Shown: one piece after another, positions 7,213-62,000 of the stretch
Numbering within the stretch: position 1 is the first letter of the stretch
Layout: the number at the start of each line of letters is the position of its first letter
DNA from: Candidatus Limnocylindrales bacterium
Lineage (GTDB): Bacteria; Chloroflexota; Limnocylindria; Limnocylindrales; CSP1-4
Direction: 5' to 3'
Assembly (NCBI GenBank): GCA_035308445.1
Contig: DATGGQ010000030.1
Coordinates: 52,598-116,597 of the forward strand
DNA: 64,000 bases
Program-made: the position numbers and the translations under genes
The notes under the pieces: generated by a model
The model's database searches: none
Seen by the model: only the letters and a program-made list of their open reading frames with translations
Told to the model about the DNA's origin: nothing

Positions 7213-7895
7213 TCGCGGGGCGGACGGCCCGGCGATCGGAGAGGGCGGCGCTCGGCGCGGACAGCGCGACGCGAGGCGCTGAGGCGGCGGCGCTCGGCGG
7301 GGGTCGCCTCGCCGGTCATCCCGTGGCGGCTCGATGGCTTCGGCCGGCGGGGCTGCTCGCCGGCCTCGCGATCGTCATCGGGGCACGCTGGGCGGCGACG
7401 GTCGACGGCCTCGACGCGATCGGCGTCGGCGTGCTGTTCGGCGCCGCCCTGGTCTGGGTCGCGGTCGTCGGCAGCCAGGGCACGGTGGCGTTCCGCCGTC
7501 CGCGGGTCGCCGAGGTCGTCTACGGGGTTGTCGGCGGCACGGCGCTCATCGCGATCGCCGTCGTCGCGAGCTCATCGGTGCCGCGGCCGATCGGCGAGCC
7601 GGCGCCCTCGTTCGCTCCGTGGGCGGCGGTGACGCTGCTCGTGGCCGGGGCCGAGGAGCTCCTGCTCCGAGGCGTGCTCTTCCGAGCCGTCGAGCGCGCG
7701 GGCGGCGTTGTTGCGGCGGTCGCGGTCACGAGCATCGCCTTCGCCGTCATGCACGTCCCGCTGTACGGCTGGCACGTCGTGCCGCTCGACCTGGGGGTCG
7801 GGATCTTCCTCGGTGGCCTGCGGCTGGCCGGCGGCGGCTGGCTCGGCCCGGCCATCGCCCATGCGATCGCCGACCTCGCGACCTGGTGGCTGTGA
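7209..7895 (+). CDS. CPBP family intramembrane metalloprotease (CAAX protease-like)
   Basis: ATGA overlap with the solute-binding protein stop. Motifs EELLLRGVLF and FAVMH...H (the EExxxR / FxxxH pair of CPBP/Abi proteases). The true start may lie further downstream. Confidence 0.6.
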   Translation: MIAGRTARRSERAALGADSATRGAEAAALGGGRLAGHPVAARWLRPAGLLAGLAIVIGARWAATVDGLDAIGVGVLFGAALVWVAVVGSQGTVAFRRPRVAEVVYGVVGGTALIAIAVVASSSVPRPIGEPAPSFAPWAAVTLLVAGAEELLLRGVLFRAVERAGGVVAAVAVTSIAFAVMHVPLYGWHVVPLDLGVGIFLGGLRLAGGGWLGPAIAHAIADLATWWL

Positions 7896-8776
7896 CCGCG
7901 GCCGCGACCGGCCGGCGCTGGGGCCTCGTTCGGCGCCGGGCGGCTCTCGCCAGCATCGTCGTCGGGCTCGCCCTCGCCTTCGCGACCGCAGCGACCGGAC
8001 GCCTCGCCGGCCCGCCGCTCTACGACGGCGTGACCCAGGTCGAGCCGTACGTCTGGCTGGACCCACCCCCGAACCACCCCGGCAACCCCTCGAGCGGCGC
8101 GGCGACGCTGCCGGTCAAGGGCGGATCGAGCCCGCTGGTCACGGTCGCCACCCAGGAGCTCACGCCGCAGGCCCAGCTGTTCGCGGTTCCCGGAGCCCTC
8201 GTGATGCCGCCGGCCACGACCTCGCTGCAGGTCTCGATCACGCCGGTCCAGCCGACCGCCCTGCCGACCGACGGCCACATCCTCGGCAACGTCTACCGAA
8301 TCCTCGTGACGACGCAGGCCGGATCGCCTGTCACCGCGCCCGCGTCGGCCAAGGTCAGCGTCATCCTGATGGCCCCCGATCCGACGACGACCCAGGCGAC
8401 GATGGGCCTCTTCGCCAACGGCACGTGGACGACCCTCGACACGACGCCCGAAGGGCAGGCGGCCGAGTTCCTGGCCGTGATCACCCAGTTCGGGGACTTC
8501 GCGCTCATCGGACCCGGTGTCGGCCCGAGCGCCGTTGCCTCGGCCGGACCCGGCGCGACCGTCGCGGGCGGCACGCCGGTGATCGGCCCGCCGACCGTGG
8601 TCCCCGGCAGCGAGACGCCGGGCGGCGGGATCCCGACGGTCACGATCGCTGCCGGCATCGCGATCGGCCTTGTCCTGGCGGGCCTCGTCGCCGTCGCGAT
8701 GCTGCCCGGTCGACGCCGTCGCGCGGTCGATCGCGACGGCTGGTCGAGGCGGCCGCCTCCACGGACCCGTCGCTAG
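7892..8776 (+). CDS. Secreted membrane-anchored protein, paralog B of the same unknown family as 4974..5759
   Basis: GTGA overlap with the CPBP stop. Signal peptide, blocks PLYDGVTQVEPY, PQAQLFAVPGALVMPPATTSLQVSITPVQP, GNVYRILVT, QFGDFALI, then C-terminal TM helix and RRRR tail. Confidence 0.6.
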   Translation: MTAAATGRRWGLVRRRAALASIVVGLALAFATAATGRLAGPPLYDGVTQVEPYVWLDPPPNHPGNPSSGAATLPVKGGSSPLVTVATQELTPQAQLFAVPGALVMPPATTSLQVSITPVQPTALPTDGHILGNVYRILVTTQAGSPVTAPASAKVSVILMAPDPTTTQATMGLFANGTWTTLDTTPEGQAAEFLAVITQFGDFALIGPGVGPSAVASAGPGATVAGGTPVIGPPTVVPGSETPGGGIPTVTIAAGIAIGLVLAGLVAVAMLPGRRRRAVDRDGWSRRPPPRTRR

Positions 8777-32671: not shown

Positions 32672-32683
32672 TACAGGCACGGC

Positions 32684-33030
32684 CGCCGGCGCGAGCACGT
32701 CCGGCGACGGGAGCACGGTCTGCCGACGGGAGCACGGTCTGCCGGCGCGAGCACGTCCGCCGGCGCGAGCACGTCCGCCGGCGCGAGCACGTCCGCCGCT
32801 CGGGCACGTCCGGCGACGGGAGCACGGTCTGCCGTTCGAGCACGTCCGCCGGCGCGAGCACGTCCGCCGGCGCGAGCACGTCCGCCGTTCGAGCACGTCC
32901 GCCGCTCGAGCACGTCCGCCGTTCGAGCACGTCCGCCGGCGCGAGCACGTCCGGCGACGGGAGCACGGTCTGCCGTCGCCGGCTCGGGCACGGTCGCCCG
33001 ACTCTGGGACGTCGCCGGCTCGGGCACGCG
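32684..33030. repeat. Spacer-less tandem repeat array, ~17 copies of a 17-19-bp unit (two unit types)
   Basis: Direct read of the sequence: unit A GAGCACGTCCGCCGGCGC and unit B GAGCACGGTCTGCCG(A/T)CGG are interleaved with no unique spacers. Unit length varies, so no reading frame is maintained. Confidence 0.85.
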
Positions 33031-33262: not shown

Positions 33263-33565
33263 ATGTCGCGTTTGCCTGTCAGGGGGATCGAGCACGGGCG
33301 GAACGTGGTCGGCAGGCGGATCGAGCACGGGCGGAACGTGGTCGGCAGACGGATCGAGCGCGAGCGGAAGGTGGTCGGCAAGGCGAGGCGAGCGCTTGGC
33401 GAGGGTGTTCGTAAGCCGCACGTGAGCTCCAGCCAATCGGCATCGGTCATGCTCGGACCGTGCCGGTTCGGGACTCGATCGCCGCGCGCGGAGAGCGACG
33501 CAGTCGCCTCCTCAGGCTCCGTGCCGCAGAAGAGCTCGTCGCTGCCCGTCAGGCGGCAGGTCTGA
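33263..33565 (+). CDS. Candidate small ORF spanning the 33-bp iterons; may be non-coding
   Basis: AGGAG 7 nt upstream of ATG 33263. Translates the three iterons as 11-aa repeats GIEHGRNVVGRR. Overlaps the XRE gene start by ~105 bp in another frame. Codon usage after the repeats is poor. Confidence 0.25.
   Translation: MSRLPVRGIEHGRNVVGRRIEHGRNVVGRRIERERKVVGKARRALGEGVRKPHVSSSQSASVMLGPCRFGTRSPRAESDAVASSGSVPQKSSSLPVRRQV
33285..33383 (+). repeat. Three tandem 33-bp direct repeats (iteron-like) upstream of the XRE regulator gene
   Basis: GATCGAGCACGGGCGGAACGTGGTCGGCAGGCG x2 exact, then a diverged third copy GATCGAGCGCGAGCGGAAGGTGGTCGGCAAGGCG. Confidence 0.85.
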
Positions 33566-56414: not shown

Positions 56415-57095
56415 GTGCGTGCCGACCGGATCACCGCCGAGATGACGAACGGAACGTCCGGATGGCTGGGCAGCGACGCCACGATGACCGCGATGCCGGT
56501 CGCTCCCTCGACCGGCCATGCCGAGTGGAGGTCGCCCATCGACGCCAGGGCCACGGACGCCGTCGATGAGCGCGCGATCGCGGCCGCGGTCCTGGCCGGC
56601 GACACGGAGGCCTACCGGCTCCTGGTCGACCGGGAATCGAGCGCGGTCGTGCGGGCGTGCCTGCGCGTGCTCGGCGATCTCGGGGAGGCTGAGGATGTCG
56701 CCCAGGAGGCGTTCGTGATCGCCTATCGATCGCTCGCGATGTGGCGTGCCGACGGGCCGTTCGGGGCGTGGCTCTCGCGGATCGCGATCCGGCTCGCCAT
56801 TCGTCAGCTCGGTCGCCGGCGGCCCGTCTCGTGGATCGAGCCCGATCCCGACGCCGAGGCCCAGACCGATCCCGCCGATGCGGCCATCCGCGGGGAGCGC
56901 GCCGACCAGGTTCGGGCGGCCGTCGCGTCGCTCGGCGATCCGTATCGCGAGACCGTCGCGCTCCGGTTCTTCGCCGATCGGTCGCTCGACGAGATCGCGG
57001 CCGTGACCGGGCGGCCGCTCGGGACCGTCAAGACGCATCTCCGGCGCGGGCTCATCCAGCTGCGCGACCGGATCGAATCGGGCGGCCCGCGGTGA
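56415..57095 (+). CDS. RNA polymerase sigma factor, ECF subfamily
   Basis: Region 2 (EDVAQEAFVIAYRSLAMWRADGPFGAWLSRIAIRLAIRQ) and region 4 (SLDEIAAVTGRPLGTVKTHLRRG). The start is uncertain: GTG 56415, ATG 56442 or ATG 56484. Confidence 0.75.
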   Translation: MRADRITAEMTNGTSGWLGSDATMTAMPVAPSTGHAEWRSPIDARATDAVDERAIAAAVLAGDTEAYRLLVDRESSAVVRACLRVLGDLGEAEDVAQEAFVIAYRSLAMWRADGPFGAWLSRIAIRLAIRQLGRRRPVSWIEPDPDAEAQTDPADAAIRGERADQVRAAVASLGDPYRETVALRFFADRSLDEIAAVTGRPLGTVKTHLRRGLIQLRDRIESGGPR

Positions 57096-57757
57096 TCGAT
57101 CGCCGCCCGCGATTCGACTCCGCCGAGGTCCGCAGTGACGATGGCGCCGTCGGCGAGGACGAGCTCCGTCTCGCCTCGGAGGCTGCTCGGCTCGTCGAGC
57201 AAGCGGCCTCGCGCACGTCCGCGGCCCGCGTCGACGTCTCGTTCGGCGACCGGGTGATGGCCGCCGTCCATGCCGAGCCGATTCCCAGGCGCGGCGGCTT
57301 CCTGGTGCCGTTGCGCCGCCAGCCGGACGCCCGGGGCTTCGTCGCGAGCCTCGGCGCGGCCGTCCGAATCGCCGGAGGCGTCGGCTTCGGGCCTCGGGCT
57401 CGGGCGACGGCCCTAGCCTACGTGCTGGTCATCATGCTGGTGCTCGGCTCGGTTGGCGGAGCCGCCGCGTACGGAGCGGCGGGCGTGTTCGGCTGGCTTC
57501 CCGTTCCAGCAGCAAGCGCCGGCCCGACGGTGCCGCCGAGCGCGCCGGCCAGCACGATCCGCCCACGGGAGAGCGAGGAGCCCTCCGGCGAGCCGGAGGA
57601 GTCGGAGTCACCGGCCGAGACCCGCGACGCGGGCGAGGGCGCCGGCCCCGGATCGACGCCGGAGACCAACGGCGCGGGCCAGACGGAGCACGATGACGAT
57701 GGCCCCGACTCGTCGTGGTCGGGCACGGGCTCAGGAGCGGGTGCCGGCTCCAGCTAG
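57092..57757 (+). CDS. Putative anti-sigma factor (single-pass membrane protein, acidic C-terminal tail)
   Basis: GTGA overlap with the sigma factor stop. One TM helix ALAYVLVIMLVLGSVGGAAAYGA. Low-complexity Glu/Ser/Gly-rich C-terminus. Confidence 0.55.
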   Translation: MIDRRPRFDSAEVRSDDGAVGEDELRLASEAARLVEQAASRTSAARVDVSFGDRVMAAVHAEPIPRRGGFLVPLRRQPDARGFVASLGAAVRIAGGVGFGPRARATALAYVLVIMLVLGSVGGAAAYGAAGVFGWLPVPAASAGPTVPPSAPASTIRPRESEEPSGEPEESESPAETRDAGEGAGPGSTPETNGAGQTEHDDDGPDSSWSGTGSGAGAGSS

Positions 57758-58423
57758 CGTCTCCTCGGAGTCCGCGGCCTCTGCCATGGCGGCTTCCGCT
57801 GCGGCCACCGCCGCCTTGCGACGCGCCCGGGCGGCCTTCGGCGCCCCGGTTCCCTCGGTGGCGACCCCGAGGATCTGGCTGCGCTGGATCAGCGCGAACG
57901 GGTAGCGACCCGCGAGCCGGCGATCGGCGAGCCAGCGAACGCGGACGTTGGCCATCGGGATGAACTTCGGGTCGGTGCTGTCCACGAACTGGATGAGGCC
58001 GCCGGACTCGTGGATGAAGGCATAGCCGTAGATGATGTGAGCCCGGGTCATCACGACGAGGCGCCGCATCTGCTTCGGGATGACGACATGGCCGTCGTTC
58101 GCCTCGCCGAGCGGGGCCACCACGAGCTGGCCGACGATCGCGACGTCGTCGAGCCGGACGCGGAGCTCCGGCAGGGTGATCCGGGTGGGCGCGCCCGTCC
58201 GATCGAGGAGCACGACGTCCCGCAGGCGGAAGAACCCGTCGAGCAGGTTGACGTAGTCCGAGATCCGCCGGAATCGCCCGACGTCGGCGACGCCGGACGC
58301 CCGCAGGTGCGTGCCGATCAGCTCGAGGTAGGCCTCGTTCGCCTCGCCCGGCGCACCCAGCGCGCCGGCGGTTCCGTCGGCCCCCGGGCCTGAGCCCCAG
58401 GGATCCCCGAACGCGTCGCTCAC
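57731..58423 (-). CDS. Hypothetical protein, last gene of the Tad-like operon
   Basis: GTG start 4 nt after the TadG-like stop. 230 aa with coding-like composition (RISDYVNLLDGFFRLRDVVLLDRTGAPTRITLPEL...). Confidence 0.5.
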   Translation of the reverse strand: MSDAFGDPWGSGPGADGTAGALGAPGEANEAYLELIGTHLRASGVADVGRFRRISDYVNLLDGFFRLRDVVLLDRTGAPTRITLPELRVRLDDVAIVGQLVVAPLGEANDGHVVIPKQMRRLVVMTRAHIIYGYAFIHESGGLIQFVDSTDPKFIPMANVRVRWLADRRLAGRYPFALIQRSQILGVATEGTGAPKAARARRKAAVAAAEAAMAEAADSEETLAGAGTRS

Positions 58424-58427
58424 CGGC

Positions 58428-60161
58428 CTACTGTACGAGGCCGTAGGCGAACGGCGTCGCGAACGCGTTCCGGCGGTAGGCGAAGTAGAAGTTGTTGTTG
58501 CCCGCGAGGGTCAGGTCCCAGCACACGAACTGGAGGGTGTTCTGGGCATCCGCACCACCGCCGGTGCCGCACGACGATCCGCCGAAGTCGACCTCGGCTC
58601 CGGCCGCATACACGGTCCCGGAGAGGACGACGCACGATCCGCCGGTCATGCCGACGATCGGCTGGGTGGTCGAGGCGCTCGGCGCCGGCGTCCGGGCCTG
58701 CCAGACGACGAGGTTCTTGTAGCTCGCGAAGGTCGTGCTGTTGGCCGTGGATCCGTTCGAGGCCACCGTGTCGTAGGTCGGGTTGTAGGCCCGCAGGAGC
58801 AGGACGCCCTGCGAGCCGTTGTTGATCGTGTCGGCCGACGAGCCGTTCGTCGACCACGTCCCCGGGCTGTCGGCCGGCGCGTTATAGATCAGCACCCCGC
58901 AGCTCGACAGCGCCGCGGCCGGCGTCGGGGTCGCGGTCACCACCTGGCAGTCGTTCTGCCAGTTGGTCCCGACCTGCGTCGTCGTGAGCTGGCACGAGCC
59001 GTTGTTGTTGTTGGTCGGGTTGCAATAGCGGGTGATGGCGTTGGCGTCGGTGCAGGAGTTCGCGACGGACGTGCCGATGCAGTTCCCGGTCAGTGACGGG
59101 ATCGCGATGATCTGGGCCGCGGAGCTCTTCAGCTGCACGCCGCCGCCGGCGATGTAGTACACGCCGGGCCGGAGCAGCAGCGTGGACGGCTGGCTGCCGT
59201 TGGCCGCGAGCAGGCCACCGGTGTAGGTGCCCGGCGAGAGGACGCAGGCGACCTTCGTGTTCTTGCAGTGCCCCTGGCCGGTCGTCGCCACGTCCTCGGC
59301 GGGGAGCGAGCTCGTCGTCCCGAGGCAGTCGGTGCCGCTCGTCGCATGGCACGGCTTGATGAGGCCGGCGAGTGGATCCGGCAGCAGCGGCCGGTAGTTC
59401 TCGGTCGGGGTCGGCGTGATCTTCGAGACCGTACCGGACGAGACCTGGCCGCCCGTCAGGAGCCGAGCGCCGTTGAGCATCGTCATGCTGAACGCCGAGT
59501 TCTGGGCCTTGACCGAGCCGTTGCTGCTGGTGGACAGCGTGCAGGTCGAGTCGACCATGATCGAGCCCTCGTAGGTGAGGGTCACGCCGCCGTTGATCAG
59601 GTACGAGGAACAGCCCGTTCGCGTGCCATGGCCGGTCCAGTTCGGGTCCGAGGGGTCGAGCAGGGCCACGGAGTAGTCGCCGTTCGTGATCTGGCCGTTG
59701 ATCCCGGTGCTGCTCGTGGCGACGGTGTTGGCCGAGGCGCCGAACCACGAGGGCCCGTTCAGCGACAGGTTGACGGTGACCGCGACGCTGCCGTAGGCCG
59801 ACGTGCTGGGGCAGGACATCGTCATCCGAGAGGTGACCTGGGCCGCCGTCCAGCCGAGGTTCGTCATCACGCTGGCCTTGGCCGCGGTGTAGAGATCGTT
59901 GCCGGAGCCCGATGACGCGATGCGGGTCGACGTGCAGCGGTACTCGCCGCTGGCGCCCTGCATCATGATGTTGGCCGCCGCGAGGGCCGCCGAGTCGCCG
60001 GCGTTCTGGAGCTGGCGCCGCAGGACGAGGTCGCCGGCCGCGCTATACAGGACGGCGGCGAGCAGCGTGATCGTCGTCAGCATGAGCGCGAAGAGCACGA
60101 GCACCTGGCCTTGCTCGGTCGGCCGCTCCGGGCCACCCTTGGCCTTCGTCCAGCGTCGCAT
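58428..60161 (-). CDS. TadG-like Flp-pilus-assembly/pseudopilin protein with large Cys-, Ser-, Thr-, Asn-rich extracellular domain
   Basis: ATG 60159-60161. N-terminus MRRWTKAKGGPERPTEQGQVLVLFALMLTTITLLAAVLYSAAGDLV is the TadE/G N-terminal helix. 577 aa with more than 20 Cys and long S/T/N/G tracts. Confidence 0.65.
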   Translation of the reverse strand: MRRWTKAKGGPERPTEQGQVLVLFALMLTTITLLAAVLYSAAGDLVLRRQLQNAGDSAALAAANIMMQGASGEYRCTSTRIASSGSGNDLYTAAKASVMTNLGWTAAQVTSRMTMSCPSTSAYGSVAVTVNLSLNGPSWFGASANTVATSSTGINGQITNGDYSVALLDPSDPNWTGHGTRTGCSSYLINGGVTLTYEGSIMVDSTCTLSTSSNGSVKAQNSAFSMTMLNGARLLTGGQVSSGTVSKITPTPTENYRPLLPDPLAGLIKPCHATSGTDCLGTTSSLPAEDVATTGQGHCKNTKVACVLSPGTYTGGLLAANGSQPSTLLLRPGVYYIAGGGVQLKSSAAQIIAIPSLTGNCIGTSVANSCTDANAITRYCNPTNNNNGSCQLTTTQVGTNWQNDCQVVTATPTPAAALSSCGVLIYNAPADSPGTWSTNGSSADTINNGSQGVLLLRAYNPTYDTVASNGSTANSTTFASYKNLVVWQARTPAPSASTTQPIVGMTGGSCVVLSGTVYAAGAEVDFGGSSCGTGGGADAQNTLQFVCWDLTLAGNNNFYFAYRRNAFATPFAYGLVQ

Positions 60162-60172
60162 CTGTCCCCTCG

Positions 60173-60703
60173 TCAGTTGTTGATCAGGACGGTGGAATGG
60201 GCGTTCACCGTGAAACCGCTGAGGCCCAGGAGGCGGCCCGTGAGGATCGGGACCGTTGACTGGACGGTGACCGTCACGTAGGTCCCGCGGACGTTCGTCA
60301 CGCCCGACTGGTCGGTGTCGCCGCTGCACGAGGTCGTGGTGTAGTAGCAGACCCACACCGTGGAGCTGCCGCCCGAGGCGATGAAGTAGGCCTTCGTCGC
60401 ATCCCGGATCGGCTGCTTCGAGTCGGGCGACCACGCCGGGCAGCCGGTGGCCGGCGTGCCCGACAGGCCCGGACCGACCGGGCAGCTGGTCAGGAACGAG
60501 CCACCATGAATGGACGCATATCGCGCGCCCTCCCGAGCGGCGTTCGTGATGTCGTCCGTGGCCCAGACGACCCGCCCGACGTCGATCATCCCGAAGACGA
60601 CGAGCAGGAAGATCGGCAGGACGATCGCGAACTCCGCGAGGCCCTGGCCGGCGTCGAACCGGTCGCCCCGGCGACGGTGAGCCAGGCGGCGAAGCAGGTG
60701 CAT
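60173..60703 (-). CDS. TadE-like protein (Flp pilus assembly pseudopilin)
   Basis: TadE motif RGDRFDAGQGLAEFAIVLPIFLLVVFGMIDVGRVV. ATG 60701-60703 lies 1 nt after the upstream TadE-like stop. Confidence 0.7.
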   Translation of the reverse strand: MHLLRRLAHRRRGDRFDAGQGLAEFAIVLPIFLLVVFGMIDVGRVVWATDDITNAAREGARYASIHGGSFLTSCPVGPGLSGTPATGCPAWSPDSKQPIRDATKAYFIASGGSSTVWVCYYTTTSCSGDTDQSGVTNVRGTYVTVTVQSTVPILTGRLLGLSGFTVNAHSTVLINN

Positions 60704-60704
60704 C

Positions 60705-61277
60705 TCAGCGCCCCACAATGGTCGAGACCGTCCGGTCGGTTCGAACGACCCACGTGCCGTTCTGGAGCCACGGGTAGGACACGAACATTCGGAACGGGAT
60801 GCAGGCGGTGACGTCGACCTTGGCAACCGGGTACTGGTTGCTGCCGCCGTCCGCTACGCTGACGTCGGGGCTCGAGAGGCTGGCCCAGACCTTGGGCGAC
60901 GTGCAGTCCGTCTGGGACGAGGACTTCGTGAAGGTCCGGCCGGTCGCCCCGTCGAGGATCGTCTTCGCGTCGGTCGTCGGTGCCGAGCTGCACGGATACG
61001 TCGAGCAGTAGTTCGTCGAATCGGTCGAGTCGTAGTAGCCGCCGCCGCTCGAGGACAGGGCCGGGTCGCTGGCGACGTACTGGGCCGCGTCGCGGGTCGC
61101 GGACTCGAGGTCGATCCACTGGAAGAACAGCCGGGCGTAGTCGACGCCCATGCCGAGGAGGGCGAGCATCACCGGCAGCACGAGGGCGAACTCGGCCAGG
61201 GACTGGCCGCGGCTCGGGCGGTGGCGTGGGCGCCGGCCGGCGGGATCGCGCGGGGATCGAGTCAGTGGACTCCTCAA
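60705..61277 (-). CDS. TadE-like protein (second copy)
   Basis: Motif RGQSLAEFALVLPVMLALLGMGVDYARLF. The only in-frame start is TTG 61275-61277. The start is uncertain. Confidence 0.6.
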   Translation of the reverse strand: MRSPLTRSPRDPAGRRPRHRPSRGQSLAEFALVLPVMLALLGMGVDYARLFFQWIDLESATRDAAQYVASDPALSSSGGGYYDSTDSTNYCSTYPCSSAPTTDAKTILDGATGRTFTKSSSQTDCTSPKVWASLSSPDVSVADGGSNQYPVAKVDVTACIPFRMFVSYPWLQNGTWVVRTDRTVSTIVGR

Positions 61278-61385
61278 GGTCGACCTGGTCCTCGCTCGGG
61301 TACGTACGTACTACGCGGGCAGTTTCCCGGCGGCACCTTGCAACCTACGTTGGAACGGTGCGTTCGCGCATAGCCCGGAAGGACC

Positions 61386-62000
61386 ATGGCGGCTCGCGAG
61401 ATGGTCCCTGCGCGCGGCGAGTACGCTCCCGGCGTGATCGTCGTCGTGCGGGGCCGGACCCCCGATAGCGCGGCGTCTGACCTCGCCCGCACGACCGCCG
61501 AGCGGGTGGCCTCGGCGGGCGATGCCGTCGAGCTCGTGGCGGCGGTCCCGGCCGATGCCGGCGGGGATCGATACCTCCTCGGGTTGCGCACGGCGAAGGT
61601 CGGGCACGCGGCGGTGCTCCGGACGCCGGCGCCGGCGCTGGAACCGGCCGACCTCGACCTGGCGCTTCGCTACCTGCCCGACGTCCGGGCGATCGTCCTC
61701 GTGGATCCCTCACCGGGCACAACCGGGATCGCTGCCGCGTCGGCCGCCTGGTCGGGCGCCGGGCTAGTGGTCGTCGGGGCCGGGGCGGACGGCTCGGACG
61801 GCGCGGACGACCCCGGCGGATCCGAAGGCGACGATCGGACGATCACCGTGGCCGGACCCGCCGCCGATCCCGACGGCGCGTTCGCGGGCTTCGTCGCGGC
61901 GCTTGCGATCCGGCTCGCCGGTGGCGCGAGCCCGGCCGGCGCGTGGGCGGACGCGACAGGCGCGCTCGGGGTGGAGGCGGTCAGCCCTTCCGGGTCCTGA
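61386..62000 (+). CDS. Hypothetical protein
   Basis: ATG start, divergent from the Tad-like operon. 204 aa, Ala/Gly/Asp-rich with coding-like GC3. No motif recognised. Confidence 0.4.
   Translation: MAAREMVPARGEYAPGVIVVVRGRTPDSAASDLARTTAERVASAGDAVELVAAVPADAGGDRYLLGLRTAKVGHAAVLRTPAPALEPADLDLALRYLPDVRAIVLVDPSPGTTGIAAASAAWSGAGLVVVGAGADGSDGADDPGGSEGDDRTITVAGPAADPDGAFAGFVAALAIRLAGGASPAGAWADATGALGVEAVSPSGS

Follow-up and report, generated by a model that had tools for sequence, protein, structure and literature searches.

A three-gene TadE-TadE-TadG cassette from a Limnocylindria bacterium as a probable satellite tip complex of a Tad pilus

What might a set of Tad-type minor pilin genes do where no pilus machine is encoded beside it? 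This question is raised by a minus-strand operon in an uncultured soil Chloroflexota (Limnocylindria) bacterium, which we analysed together with its surroundings in a 64-kb stretch of DNA (the window). Limnocylindria are an abundant uncultured class of soil and freshwater. A sequence-only reading of this DNA had proposed either a satellite cassette of minor pilins that relies on a Tad machine encoded elsewhere, or a repurposed secretion accessory set. We conclude that the first three genes probably encode a satellite tip (initiation) complex of a Tad pilus whose machine would be encoded elsewhere.

The operon and its TadE-like prepilins

The operon comprises four tightly spaced genes with intergenic gaps of 1, 11, and 4 nt. 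They lie where the sequence-only reading had placed them, in the order TadE-TadE-TadG plus a coupled gene. The features are as follows.

60705..61277, minus strand: TadE-like minor pilin A (Pfam PF07811 TadE, E 1.9e-12)
60173..60703, minus strand: TadE-like minor pilin B (Pfam PF07811, E 3.4e-16)
58428..60161, minus strand: TadG-like large protein, putative tip pilin, 577 aa (borderline PF13400 'Tad'; predicted pilin-like head and beta-solenoid)
57731..58423, minus strand: DUF6812 protein, 230 aa (PF20660 match)
61337..61376, minus strand: conserved non-coding block 5' of the operon (aligns in six loci)
61300..61311, no strand: perfect 12-bp palindrome GTACGTACGTAC in the leader region

TadE-like A has 190 aa when read from a TTG codon, the sole canonical start 5' of its signal motif, and carries an Arg-rich leader of 24 aa. 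The JGI call (154 aa) truncates this motif away; the homologues in loci L004 and L005 have calls of 189 and 178 aa that match PF07811. TadE-like B (176 aa) starts 1 nt past the stop of gene A. The two N-termini picked out from the letters, GQSLAEFALVLP and GQGLAEFAIVLP, are present, and HMM searches confirmed the TadE identity of both proteins, with PF07811 scores of 47.5 bits for A and 59.5 bits for B against a gathering score of 22.9. TadE-like B also gave weak matches to Tad_C (PF09977) and NCBIfam TadE_Rv3655c, both under their own cutoffs.

Cleavage is predicted after Gly in both proteins (slash), at RG/QSLAEFALVLPV (RG/QSLAEF) in A and at AG/QGLAEFAIVLPI (AG/QGLAEF) in B. The two share an invariant G/QxLxEF prepilin motif, with a class III leader, Gly at -1, Glu at mature position 5, and then a hydrophobic helix, which together make up the substrate motif of TadV. 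Judging from this motif, a TadV-type peptidase would cleave them; a scan of ten membrane-type proteins of the window turned up no Peptidase_A24 gene. In each of the 20 loci examined, the first TadE gene carries the motif G/QS[LIV]xE. The second TadE gene retained its motif and Cys counts in the 12 relatives where a motif pattern located it, and the pattern located none in L006 and L010-L014. Cys counts were even in both proteins: each has 4 in the window (in A, within the mature part), and mature A always has 2 or 4 across loci.

In the upstream region, the conserved block, GGGCTATGCG..GCACC..CAA..GTAGGTTGCAAG, aligns in loci from three different genomic neighbourhoods and is a probable promoter or operator. 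The region gave no match to the sigma-70 consensus, and a scan for sigma-70 promoters and terminators returned nothing useful. A sigma-54 reading of GCACC..TTGCA was rejected, as its spacing is too long. The palindrome noted earlier is indeed there, as a single exact copy in the window, but it is kept only in the closest relative, L004 (10/12 bases), and is absent from L005, L007, L008, and L021. The palindrome overlaps a potential ECF promoter, GAAAC-N17-CGTAC, for which the ECF sigma factor encoded nearby (56415-57095) could have been the partner; this idea was rejected as unsupported: in L004 the -35 element is degraded and there is no ECF neighbour, and the motif is missing in L005, L007, L008, and L021. 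Rfam searches of the leader region and the whole window yielded no credible match, and the leader RNA fold was unremarkable (z = -1.39).

GC content dips at the operon to 0.69 against about 0.73. Horizontal transfer was rejected as the source of this dip, as GC3 of the operon genes is still 0.92-0.95. The dip arises because first-codon-position GC is low in Thr/Ser/Asn-rich genes.

Triads, Tad core loci, and the DUF6812 gene in Limnocylindria

Using related-locus queries in phmmer, we detected no Flp, CpaB, TadZ, CpaF, TadB, or TadC at E<=10 in the whole window, and no window gene has a CpaF-type Walker A motif. The lack of Tad core genes near the locus, as first read from the sequence, therefore extends across all 64 kb. 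The same reading had raised a contiguous tad operon just outside the window, and none was found: the genes called in about 6 kb past its end include no Tad core gene and belong to other families (SRAP, rhomboid, histidine kinase/response regulator, aminotransferase, MoxR AAA, and VWA_CoxE).

The TadE-TadE-TadG triad is nevertheless widespread. It was present in 17 of the 17 Limnocylindria loci that show the TadG gene and its upstream flank, a count that leaves out three other matches, which are fragments at a contig end. Tandem arrays of 2-4 triads occur in L006, L010-L014, and L020, and in the MAG DASSHR01 triads lie on two contigs (L009 and L014), so that one genome can hold several triads, not all of them beside the core. 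In most loci the triad is on its own, about 14 of the 17 having no core gene nearby.

The link to a pilus machine comes from the remaining loci. In L019, the triad lies directly 3' of a complete flp-cpaB-tadZ-cpaF-tadB-tadC locus, in the order Flp, CpaB/RcpC, TadZ (REC+ParA), CpaF (T2SSE), TadB, TadC, response regulator, histidine kinase, two TadE, and TadG-like; the last of these is full-length and 33% identical to the window protein. Core-type regulator and kinase genes precede about four triads in L020, and a TadZ-like gene sits immediately 5' of the triad in L022. Two further core loci, L108 and L109, resemble L019 in layout and end in their own, differently built TadE-TadE-large-gene set. 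Their resident third gene has no sequence similarity to the window TadG family, so that it is chiefly L019, L020, and L022 that connect this family to the core. A metagenome scan with L019 CpaF drew 80 loci from many phyla (GC 32-75%) because CpaF is so conserved, and none carried the window TadG family. The linkage of core and triad in L019, together with the solitary triads elsewhere, supports a satellite minor-pilin cassette, while we found no support for a repurposed secretion accessory set.

Solitary triads, in the 64-kb window as in most other loci, would also suit an explanation without any Tad motor. In it, the TadG-like protein, anchored in the membrane, would be an adhesin of the cell surface or a beta-helix protein active on polysaccharides and would never become part of a pilus, and the two TadE-like proteins would be membrane accessory factors. 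The classical TadG of Aggregatibacter is, moreover, described as a membrane protein and not as a processed pilin. We regard this explanation as improbable, however. The strict prepilin motif and Glu5 of both TadE proteins make sense only with a peptidase and filament assembly, L019 joins a family member physically to a full core, and Pfam detected no catalytic domain. In addition, CpaF occurs in 120 clusters among the matches listed, with conservation of 90% or more; the few source names of these clusters are mostly Chloroflexota or Limnocylindria.

The fourth gene encodes a DUF6812 protein (34.6 bits against a gathering score of 27.1) with two tandem Sm/LSm-like beta-barrels and a C-terminal helix, without a hydrophobic segment. 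Its start lies only 4 nt past the TadG stop, and the two genes are translationally coupled. The triad-then-DUF6812 order recurs in eight loci (L001, L004, L005, L007, L008, L009, L021, and L023) and at least three different neighbourhoods. Such coupling could mean that the four genes are one functional unit, in which the Sm-like protein serves the triad specifically from the cytoplasm, for instance as a chaperone or by regulating it post-transcriptionally. We think this rather unlikely, since the two parts also occur separately: the triads of L006, L010-L020, and L022 have no DUF6812 beside them, and DUF6812 stands alone in L026 and, at the syntenic site of the window, in L027, with a homologue of hyp204 (E 1e-33) on one side and a Peptidase_M16 pair on the other. 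DUF6812 is also conserved far above the triad proteins. Because it occurs without the triad, it is probably not a pilus component but a cytoplasmic passenger or regulator, and on this reading it should not be annotated as a pilus gene. The tight coupling in eight loci is left unaccounted for by the pilus model.

The large TadG-like protein and the proposed tip

The N-terminus of the TadG-like protein reads G/QVLVLFAL, with a hydrophobic helix following Gly18 and no Glu at position 5. Gly18 is invariant among 40 homologues, and Glu5 is absent. Its sole Pfam match is an N-terminal one to PF13400 'Tad', at 21.3 bits against a gathering score of 22.3; a precomputed PF13400 match exists in most homologues. 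In the structure model, residues 14-65 form a long N-terminal helix and the distal domain is large; the overall order is helix, pilin-like head, and disulfide-rich beta-solenoid. Residues 351-425 form a variable, indel-rich insert. Of the vWA or adhesin domains that the sequence-only reading suggested looking for, an adhesin-like domain is predicted in the form of this solenoid, but no VWA match was obtained in Pfam at E<=0.1. The expected richness in Ser, Thr, Asn, and Gly is evident (S+T+N+G = 40.8%), whereas the protein has 17 Cys (2.9%) rather than more than 20. Ten of these are invariant as five consecutive pairs, and three more pairs are gained or lost together.

According to the model, the protein has a ComZ-like build, that is, a pilin-like domain plus a beta-solenoid of the ice-binding-protein type. 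As fold matches, ice-binding proteins and generic beta-helices of adhesins or lyases equal or nearly equal ComZ in score. A profile search of PDB sequences revealed no similarity to ComZ at E<=1, and a sequence search of solved structures gave nothing significant.

This resemblance suggests a possible role in competence, with the pilus taking up DNA and the solenoid acting as an extracellular DNA receptor as in Thermus. Flp-pilus-dependent natural transformation has reportedly been observed in Actinobacteria, and a ComF-like gene (DZR_2 and Pribosyltran domains) follows the Limnocylindria core loci. However, comF and hpf are commonly adjacent in genomes that have no Tad pili, and comEA, comEC, and dprA were seen near no locus. 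ComZ does bind DNA and has been proposed as a pilus cap, but its authors obtained no functional clue from the solenoid fold (PMC6561018). Given also the lack of sequence similarity and the comparable scores of other beta-helices, we attach a low probability to DNA uptake, which in any case refines the tip model and does not oppose it.

In the tip model, a TadV-type prepilin peptidase would cut the two TadE-type prepilins after the conserved Gly, and, within the membrane, their hydrophobic N-terminal helices would form a bundle with that of the large pilin, which lacks Glu5 like the capping pseudopilins GspK and ComZ. The trimer would prime Flp pilin polymerisation on a CpaF/TadB/TadC machine from another locus and end at the distal pilus tip. 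There, the disulfide-stapled solenoid with its variable insert may serve as a ligand-binding or adhesive module. Limnocylindria would keep one conserved core locus that has a TadE-TadE-large-gene set of its own, as well as one to several further triads that act as exchangeable tips. One such triad would have come to sit 5' of the conserved Sm-like DUF6812 gene, itself no structural part of the pilus. A bolder version, which we offer as speculation with little chance of being correct, is a Limnocylindria tip library. Here, the solenoid, through its hypervariable insert, would be a specific receptor, for instance for extracellular DNA, a polysaccharide, or the surface of a mineral or of ice; the Tad pilus would serve in competence if DNA is the ligand. 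The co-transcribed DUF6812 would be a post-transcriptional switch choosing the tip.

Comparison with known systems

Many annotated TadG proteins have a vWA-like ectodomain. The window cassette shares with the canonical TadE/TadF/TadG of Aggregatibacter actinomycetemcomitans and CpaJ/K/L of Caulobacter the TadE Pfam domain, the G/xxxxE(F/Y) leader, which is cleaved by TadV in the canonical systems, and the order of two small pseudopilins followed by a large PF13400-type protein. It differs in sitting away from flp, tadZ, tadA, tadB, and tadC, and its large protein has a borderline PF13400 match and no detected vWA-like domain.

Compared with Sm/LSm/Hfq fold proteins, the DUF6812 protein fuses two units in tandem and adds a long C-terminal helix; it has no sequence match to the Hfq/LSm families, and the likeness is one of fold, so that RNA binding or ring formation would be putative. 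The TadG-like protein resembles the DUF3494/IBP-1 ice-binding proteins (PDB 3wp9, 5uyt, 6bg8) in predicted fold; these have no Pfam or sequence match to it and are free secreted or Ig-anchored proteins, not pilins. ComZ of Thermus thermophilus (PDB 6qvi; PMC6561018) combines a pilin-like part with a triangular beta-solenoid related to ice-binding proteins; like the window protein, it lacks Glu5 and is so bulky that it would fit only at the tip. ComZ, however, belongs to a type IVa rather than a Tad system, shows no detectable sequence similarity, and is described without mention of disulfides. DNA binding is a property of ComZ, to which the window protein is likened by predicted fold only.

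The closest parallel is with Tip1-4 of the Myxococcus xanthus Kil system, four paralogous KilL/M/N (TadE/F/G) clusters described in 2025, in which the distal end is formed by the large KilN and numerous disulfides are predicted; any one Tip is enough to prime the pilus (PMC12075869). Both are three-gene sets homologous to TadE, TadF, and TadG that occur as several paralogues in a genome, with one set inside the core cluster and the others apart from it, and both have a large TadG-type pilin with a distal modular domain and many predicted intramolecular disulfides. Assembly priming and tip customising, demonstrated in Myxococcus, are proposed here. The differences are a different phylum and envelope, with no secretin gene seen in the three Limnocylindria core loci; the absence of a link to predation; and a trimer that is a prediction here. 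The distal domain here is a beta-solenoid of the ice-binding-protein/ComZ type, whereas that of KilN4, as described, lacks structural homologues among characterised PDB proteins (PMC12075869).

The cassette thus falls within a known kind of module and is no new class of system. If the tip model is correct, the idea of an adaptable tip, with one conserved motor and several exchangeable minor-pilin tips, would hold not only for a predatory deltaproteobacterium but also for a class of Chloroflexota that is uncultured and abundant in the environment, and in whose Tad core loci no secretin gene was seen. It would also add a distinct tip fold, the ice-binding-protein/ComZ-type beta-solenoid with conserved disulfides, and would account for the frequent orphan TadE/TadG-like genes in these genomes.

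Gene content of the cassette and its surroundings

Gene calls bore out the four consecutive minus-strand genes proposed by the sequence-only reading, at the place it had given. They lie nearly end to end, with intergenic gaps of 1, 11 and 4 nt in the order TadE-like A, TadE-like B, TadG-like and DUF6812, in a window of 73% GC. TadE, TadF and TadG are the classical pseudopilins of Tad systems.

Genes of the cassette
60705-61277, minus strand: TadE-like A, Pfam TadE
60173-60703, minus strand: TadE-like B, Pfam TadE
58428-60161, minus strand: TadG-like, 577 aa, N-terminal PF13400 'Tad' domain below cutoff
57731-58423, minus strand: DUF6812 gene, 230 aa, DUF6812 match

The TadE motifs of A and B were backed by HMM searches, both proteins scoring far above the Pfam TadE gathering score. 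PF13400 was the sole match of the TadG-like protein (21.3 bits; cutoff 22.3), and an NCBIfam scan of the cassette proteins gave nothing beyond sub-threshold TadE-type matches. For TadE-like A, no canonical start other than the TTG at 61277 precedes the signal motif, and the shorter JGI call loses this motif. Because the motif was kept in every gene A examined (20 loci), we consider the long form to be right. The TadG-like protein has exactly the sequence of 'hypothetical protein VKR30_08075 [Candidatus Limnocylindrales bacterium]' (phylum Chloroflexota, class Limnocylindria, order Limnocylindrales), and it also occurs on the metagenome contigs JGI Ga0209579_10000140 (114 kb) and ENA ERZ27279685 k141_25529 (182 kb).

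We then searched for the core genes of a Tad machine. Flp, CpaB, TadZ, CpaF, TadB and TadC queries from a related locus returned nothing at E ≤ 10 except the cassette itself when compared with the six reading frames of the window. No CpaF-type Walker A motif was present among the predicted window genes, and none of the 10 membrane-type window proteins scanned was a prepilin peptidase. Past the window end, where the look-up covered only ~6 kb, the source contig carries genes for SRAP, rhomboid, a histidine kinase/response regulator pair, an aminotransferase, a MoxR-type AAA protein and VWA_CoxE. The earlier statement that no Tad core lies close by therefore held in the 64-kb window and among the genes called in those ~6 kb, where a full tad operon just outside the window was also looked for and not found. 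Since three checks agreed on the absence of core genes, the cassette is separated from any core by at least 57 kb on one side, and the ~9 kb covered on the other side showed no core gene. Elsewhere in the window, a 1.1-kb region with no convincing gene contains an 18-bp tandem repeat (32677-32979; ~17 copies, consensus GCACGTCCGCCGGCGCGA, higher-order period 89 bp) and a separate 33-bp repeat (33280-33385; 3.2 copies).

The DUF6812 gene, upstream region and flanking genes

In the predicted model of the DUF6812 protein (pLDDT 81.5), two Sm/LSm-like barrels precede a helix, and the protein has no hydrophobic segment. Its 433 homologues are conserved well above the triad proteins (TadE_A, TadE_B and TadG). 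The gene lies 3' of a triad in eight loci representing at least three neighbourhoods, and occurs without a triad in two others, L026 and L027. L027 shares its neighbourhood with the window: genes for VWA_CoxE, MoxR, aminotransferase, rhomboid and SRAP come first, the homologue (E 1e-33) of the divergent 204-aa gene is next, and DUF6812 and a Peptidase_M16 pair follow. Judged by this synteny, the triad is an apparent insertion or deletion just upstream of DUF6812. As the gene stands alone at a window-like site in L027, we read it as a resident gene that was later co-transcribed, and not as a pilus part. On this reading DUF6812 should not be annotated as a pilus gene; a regulatory role is possible.

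Features flanking the cassette
61337-61376, minus strand: conserved non-coding block of 40 nt (GGGCTATGCG..GCACC..CAA..GTAGGTTGCAAG), upstream of the first TadE gene
61386-62000, plus strand: divergent 204-aa gene, no Pfam or NCBIfam match
56415-57757, plus strand: ECF sigma factor gene (Sigma70_r2/r4) and overlapping downstream 221-aa gene, converging on the cassette

The 12-bp palindrome GTACGTACGTAC reported in the upstream region was found at 61300-61311, and was common to the closest relative only. The 40-nt block was kept in six loci of different neighbourhoods (the window, L004, L005, L007, L008 and L021), and was absent upstream of the stand-alone DUF6812 gene of L027. It is probably a promoter or operator of the cassette. 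A consensus promoter, an Rfam family and a stable RNA fold were all looked for in the upstream region, and none was found. In L005, the four-gene operon lies ~220 bp downstream of tRNA-Pro(TGG) (8641-8717), which replaces the divergent gene, and the block is kept; this tRNA context might mark an integration site. L004 and L027, both syntenic, were the sole loci with a homologue of the 204-aa gene. The 221-aa gene possibly encodes an anti-sigma factor. Because the ECF/221-aa pair is missing in the otherwise syntenic L004, it represents a second insertion or deletion at the cassette site.

Triads in related loci and their link to a Tad machine

Homologues of the TadG-like protein numbered 163 in a large protein collection. 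The best 120 of these were all 45-75% identical and mostly full length, and their names, where given, were Limnocylindr* or Chloroflexi. Scanning a single genome from each species gave 19 TadG loci, of which 18 belong to Chloroflexota or Limnocylindria MAGs. The ectodomain (residues 170-577) had only 86 matches (E ≤ 1e-3) in 1.84 billion representative proteins, indicating that the TadG family is lineage-restricted. L010 and the proteins P0160 and P0249 are labelled Deferrimicrobiaceae, Acidoferrales or Methylomirabilota yet are close to Limnocylindria sequences; these labels probably reflect binning errors in the source MAGs.

Loci were annotated with phmmer and with gene and Pfam tables. The order TadE_A, TadE_B, TadG was seen in all 17 loci showing the TadG gene and its upstream flank; the remaining three matches (L023-L025) are contig-end fragments outside this count. 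L006, L010-L014 and L020 contain two to four triads in tandem, and the MAG DASSHR01 carries triads on two contigs. The TadG-like genes of some arrays are much larger; L006 has two that carry PF13400 and encode 846 and 883 aa. In ~14 of the 17 informative loci, no core gene lay within 10 kb.

In L019, a full-length TadG homologue (33% identity) closes a complete Tad locus: Flp (…G|QTLVEYGLLLALIAIIVIVAL…), CpaB/RcpC, TadZ (REC+ParA), CpaF (T2SSE domain, E 7e-65), TadB, TadC, an OmpR-type regulator, a histidine kinase, TadE, TadE and TadG. Two Limnocylindria core loci, L108 and L109 (contigs of 0.7 and 1.5 Mb), share this layout; both include a TadE-TadE-large-gene set of their own, and neither has a secretin gene. 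L020 begins with a core-type regulator and kinase, followed by ~4 triads. In L022, a TadZ-like gene (7471-8754; REC and ParA-type ATPase; E 4e-73 to L019 TadZ) directly precedes the triad, and CpaF, TadB and TadC are absent within 10 kb; this suggests an orphan TadZ paralogue that moves together with a satellite tip. Across the 120 clusters listed, whose few source names were mostly Chloroflexota or Limnocylindria, CpaF identity was at least 90%. The motor is thus highly conserved, in contrast to the fast-diverging triad proteins.

A ComF-like gene (double zinc ribbon and phosphoribosyltransferase domain) lies 3' of the core in L019 (11666-12316), L108 (18446-19509) and L109 (18598-19683); in the latter two loci it stands between a DUF192 gene and a ribosome hibernation factor gene, in that order. 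Its position beside Limnocylindria core loci possibly bears on a role in competence.

The core-linked triad of L019, the related L020 and L022, and the isolated triads elsewhere favour the first proposal of a satellite minor-pilin cassette. These sequence comparisons support the cassette as a putative satellite Tad tip set in a window without a core.

The TadG-like protein and known pilus tips

The TadG-like protein had been credited with more than 20 cysteines, but the count is 17 (2.9%), every one beyond residue 75. Ten are invariant, forming five consecutive pairs (76/117, 184/207, 299/306, 405/421 and 510/531), and the pairs 271/279, 361/370 and 380/390 are jointly gained or lost across homologues. 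This paired pattern is what disulfides would give. The mature parts of TadE_A and TadE_B always have two or four cysteines. Conservation of the TadG-like protein is lowest, and indels are most frequent, at residues 351-425. Three giant proteins, P0397, P0416 and P0434 (1664, 2182 and 1323 aa), each gave 14-19 matches to a ~50-residue solenoid piece (TadG ~478-538); the terminal TadG solenoid turns therefore resemble the repeat unit of these proteins.

Tad genes have been noted earlier in other Chloroflexota, and our literature search found no paper naming both Limnocylindria and pili. What the present work adds is a predicted ComZ-like fold and the multiplicity of putative tip cassettes in an uncultured class. 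Foldseek ranked ComZ first for the TadG-like protein, although weakly. ComZ combines a pilin-like domain with a triangular beta-solenoid, its nearest structural relative is an ice-binding protein, and, like GspK, it lacks Glu5 and has been argued to fit the pilus tip only (PMC6561018). The TadG-like protein has the same two-part build by prediction, and its invariant Gly18 is followed by QVLVLFAL, also without Glu5.

In Myxococcus, the KilL/M/N (TadE/F/G) cluster exists in four paralogous versions; the kil core contains one, and the other three are located elsewhere (2025; PMC12075869). The predicted product of each set is a spearhead-shaped trimer that contains many disulfides and ends in the extra domain of the large pilin, each set suffices to prime the pilus, and TadEFG proteins have been proposed to form such tips in general (PMC12075869). 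In its genes and predicted fold, the window locus fits this description of a tip, in another phylum and with another distal fold.
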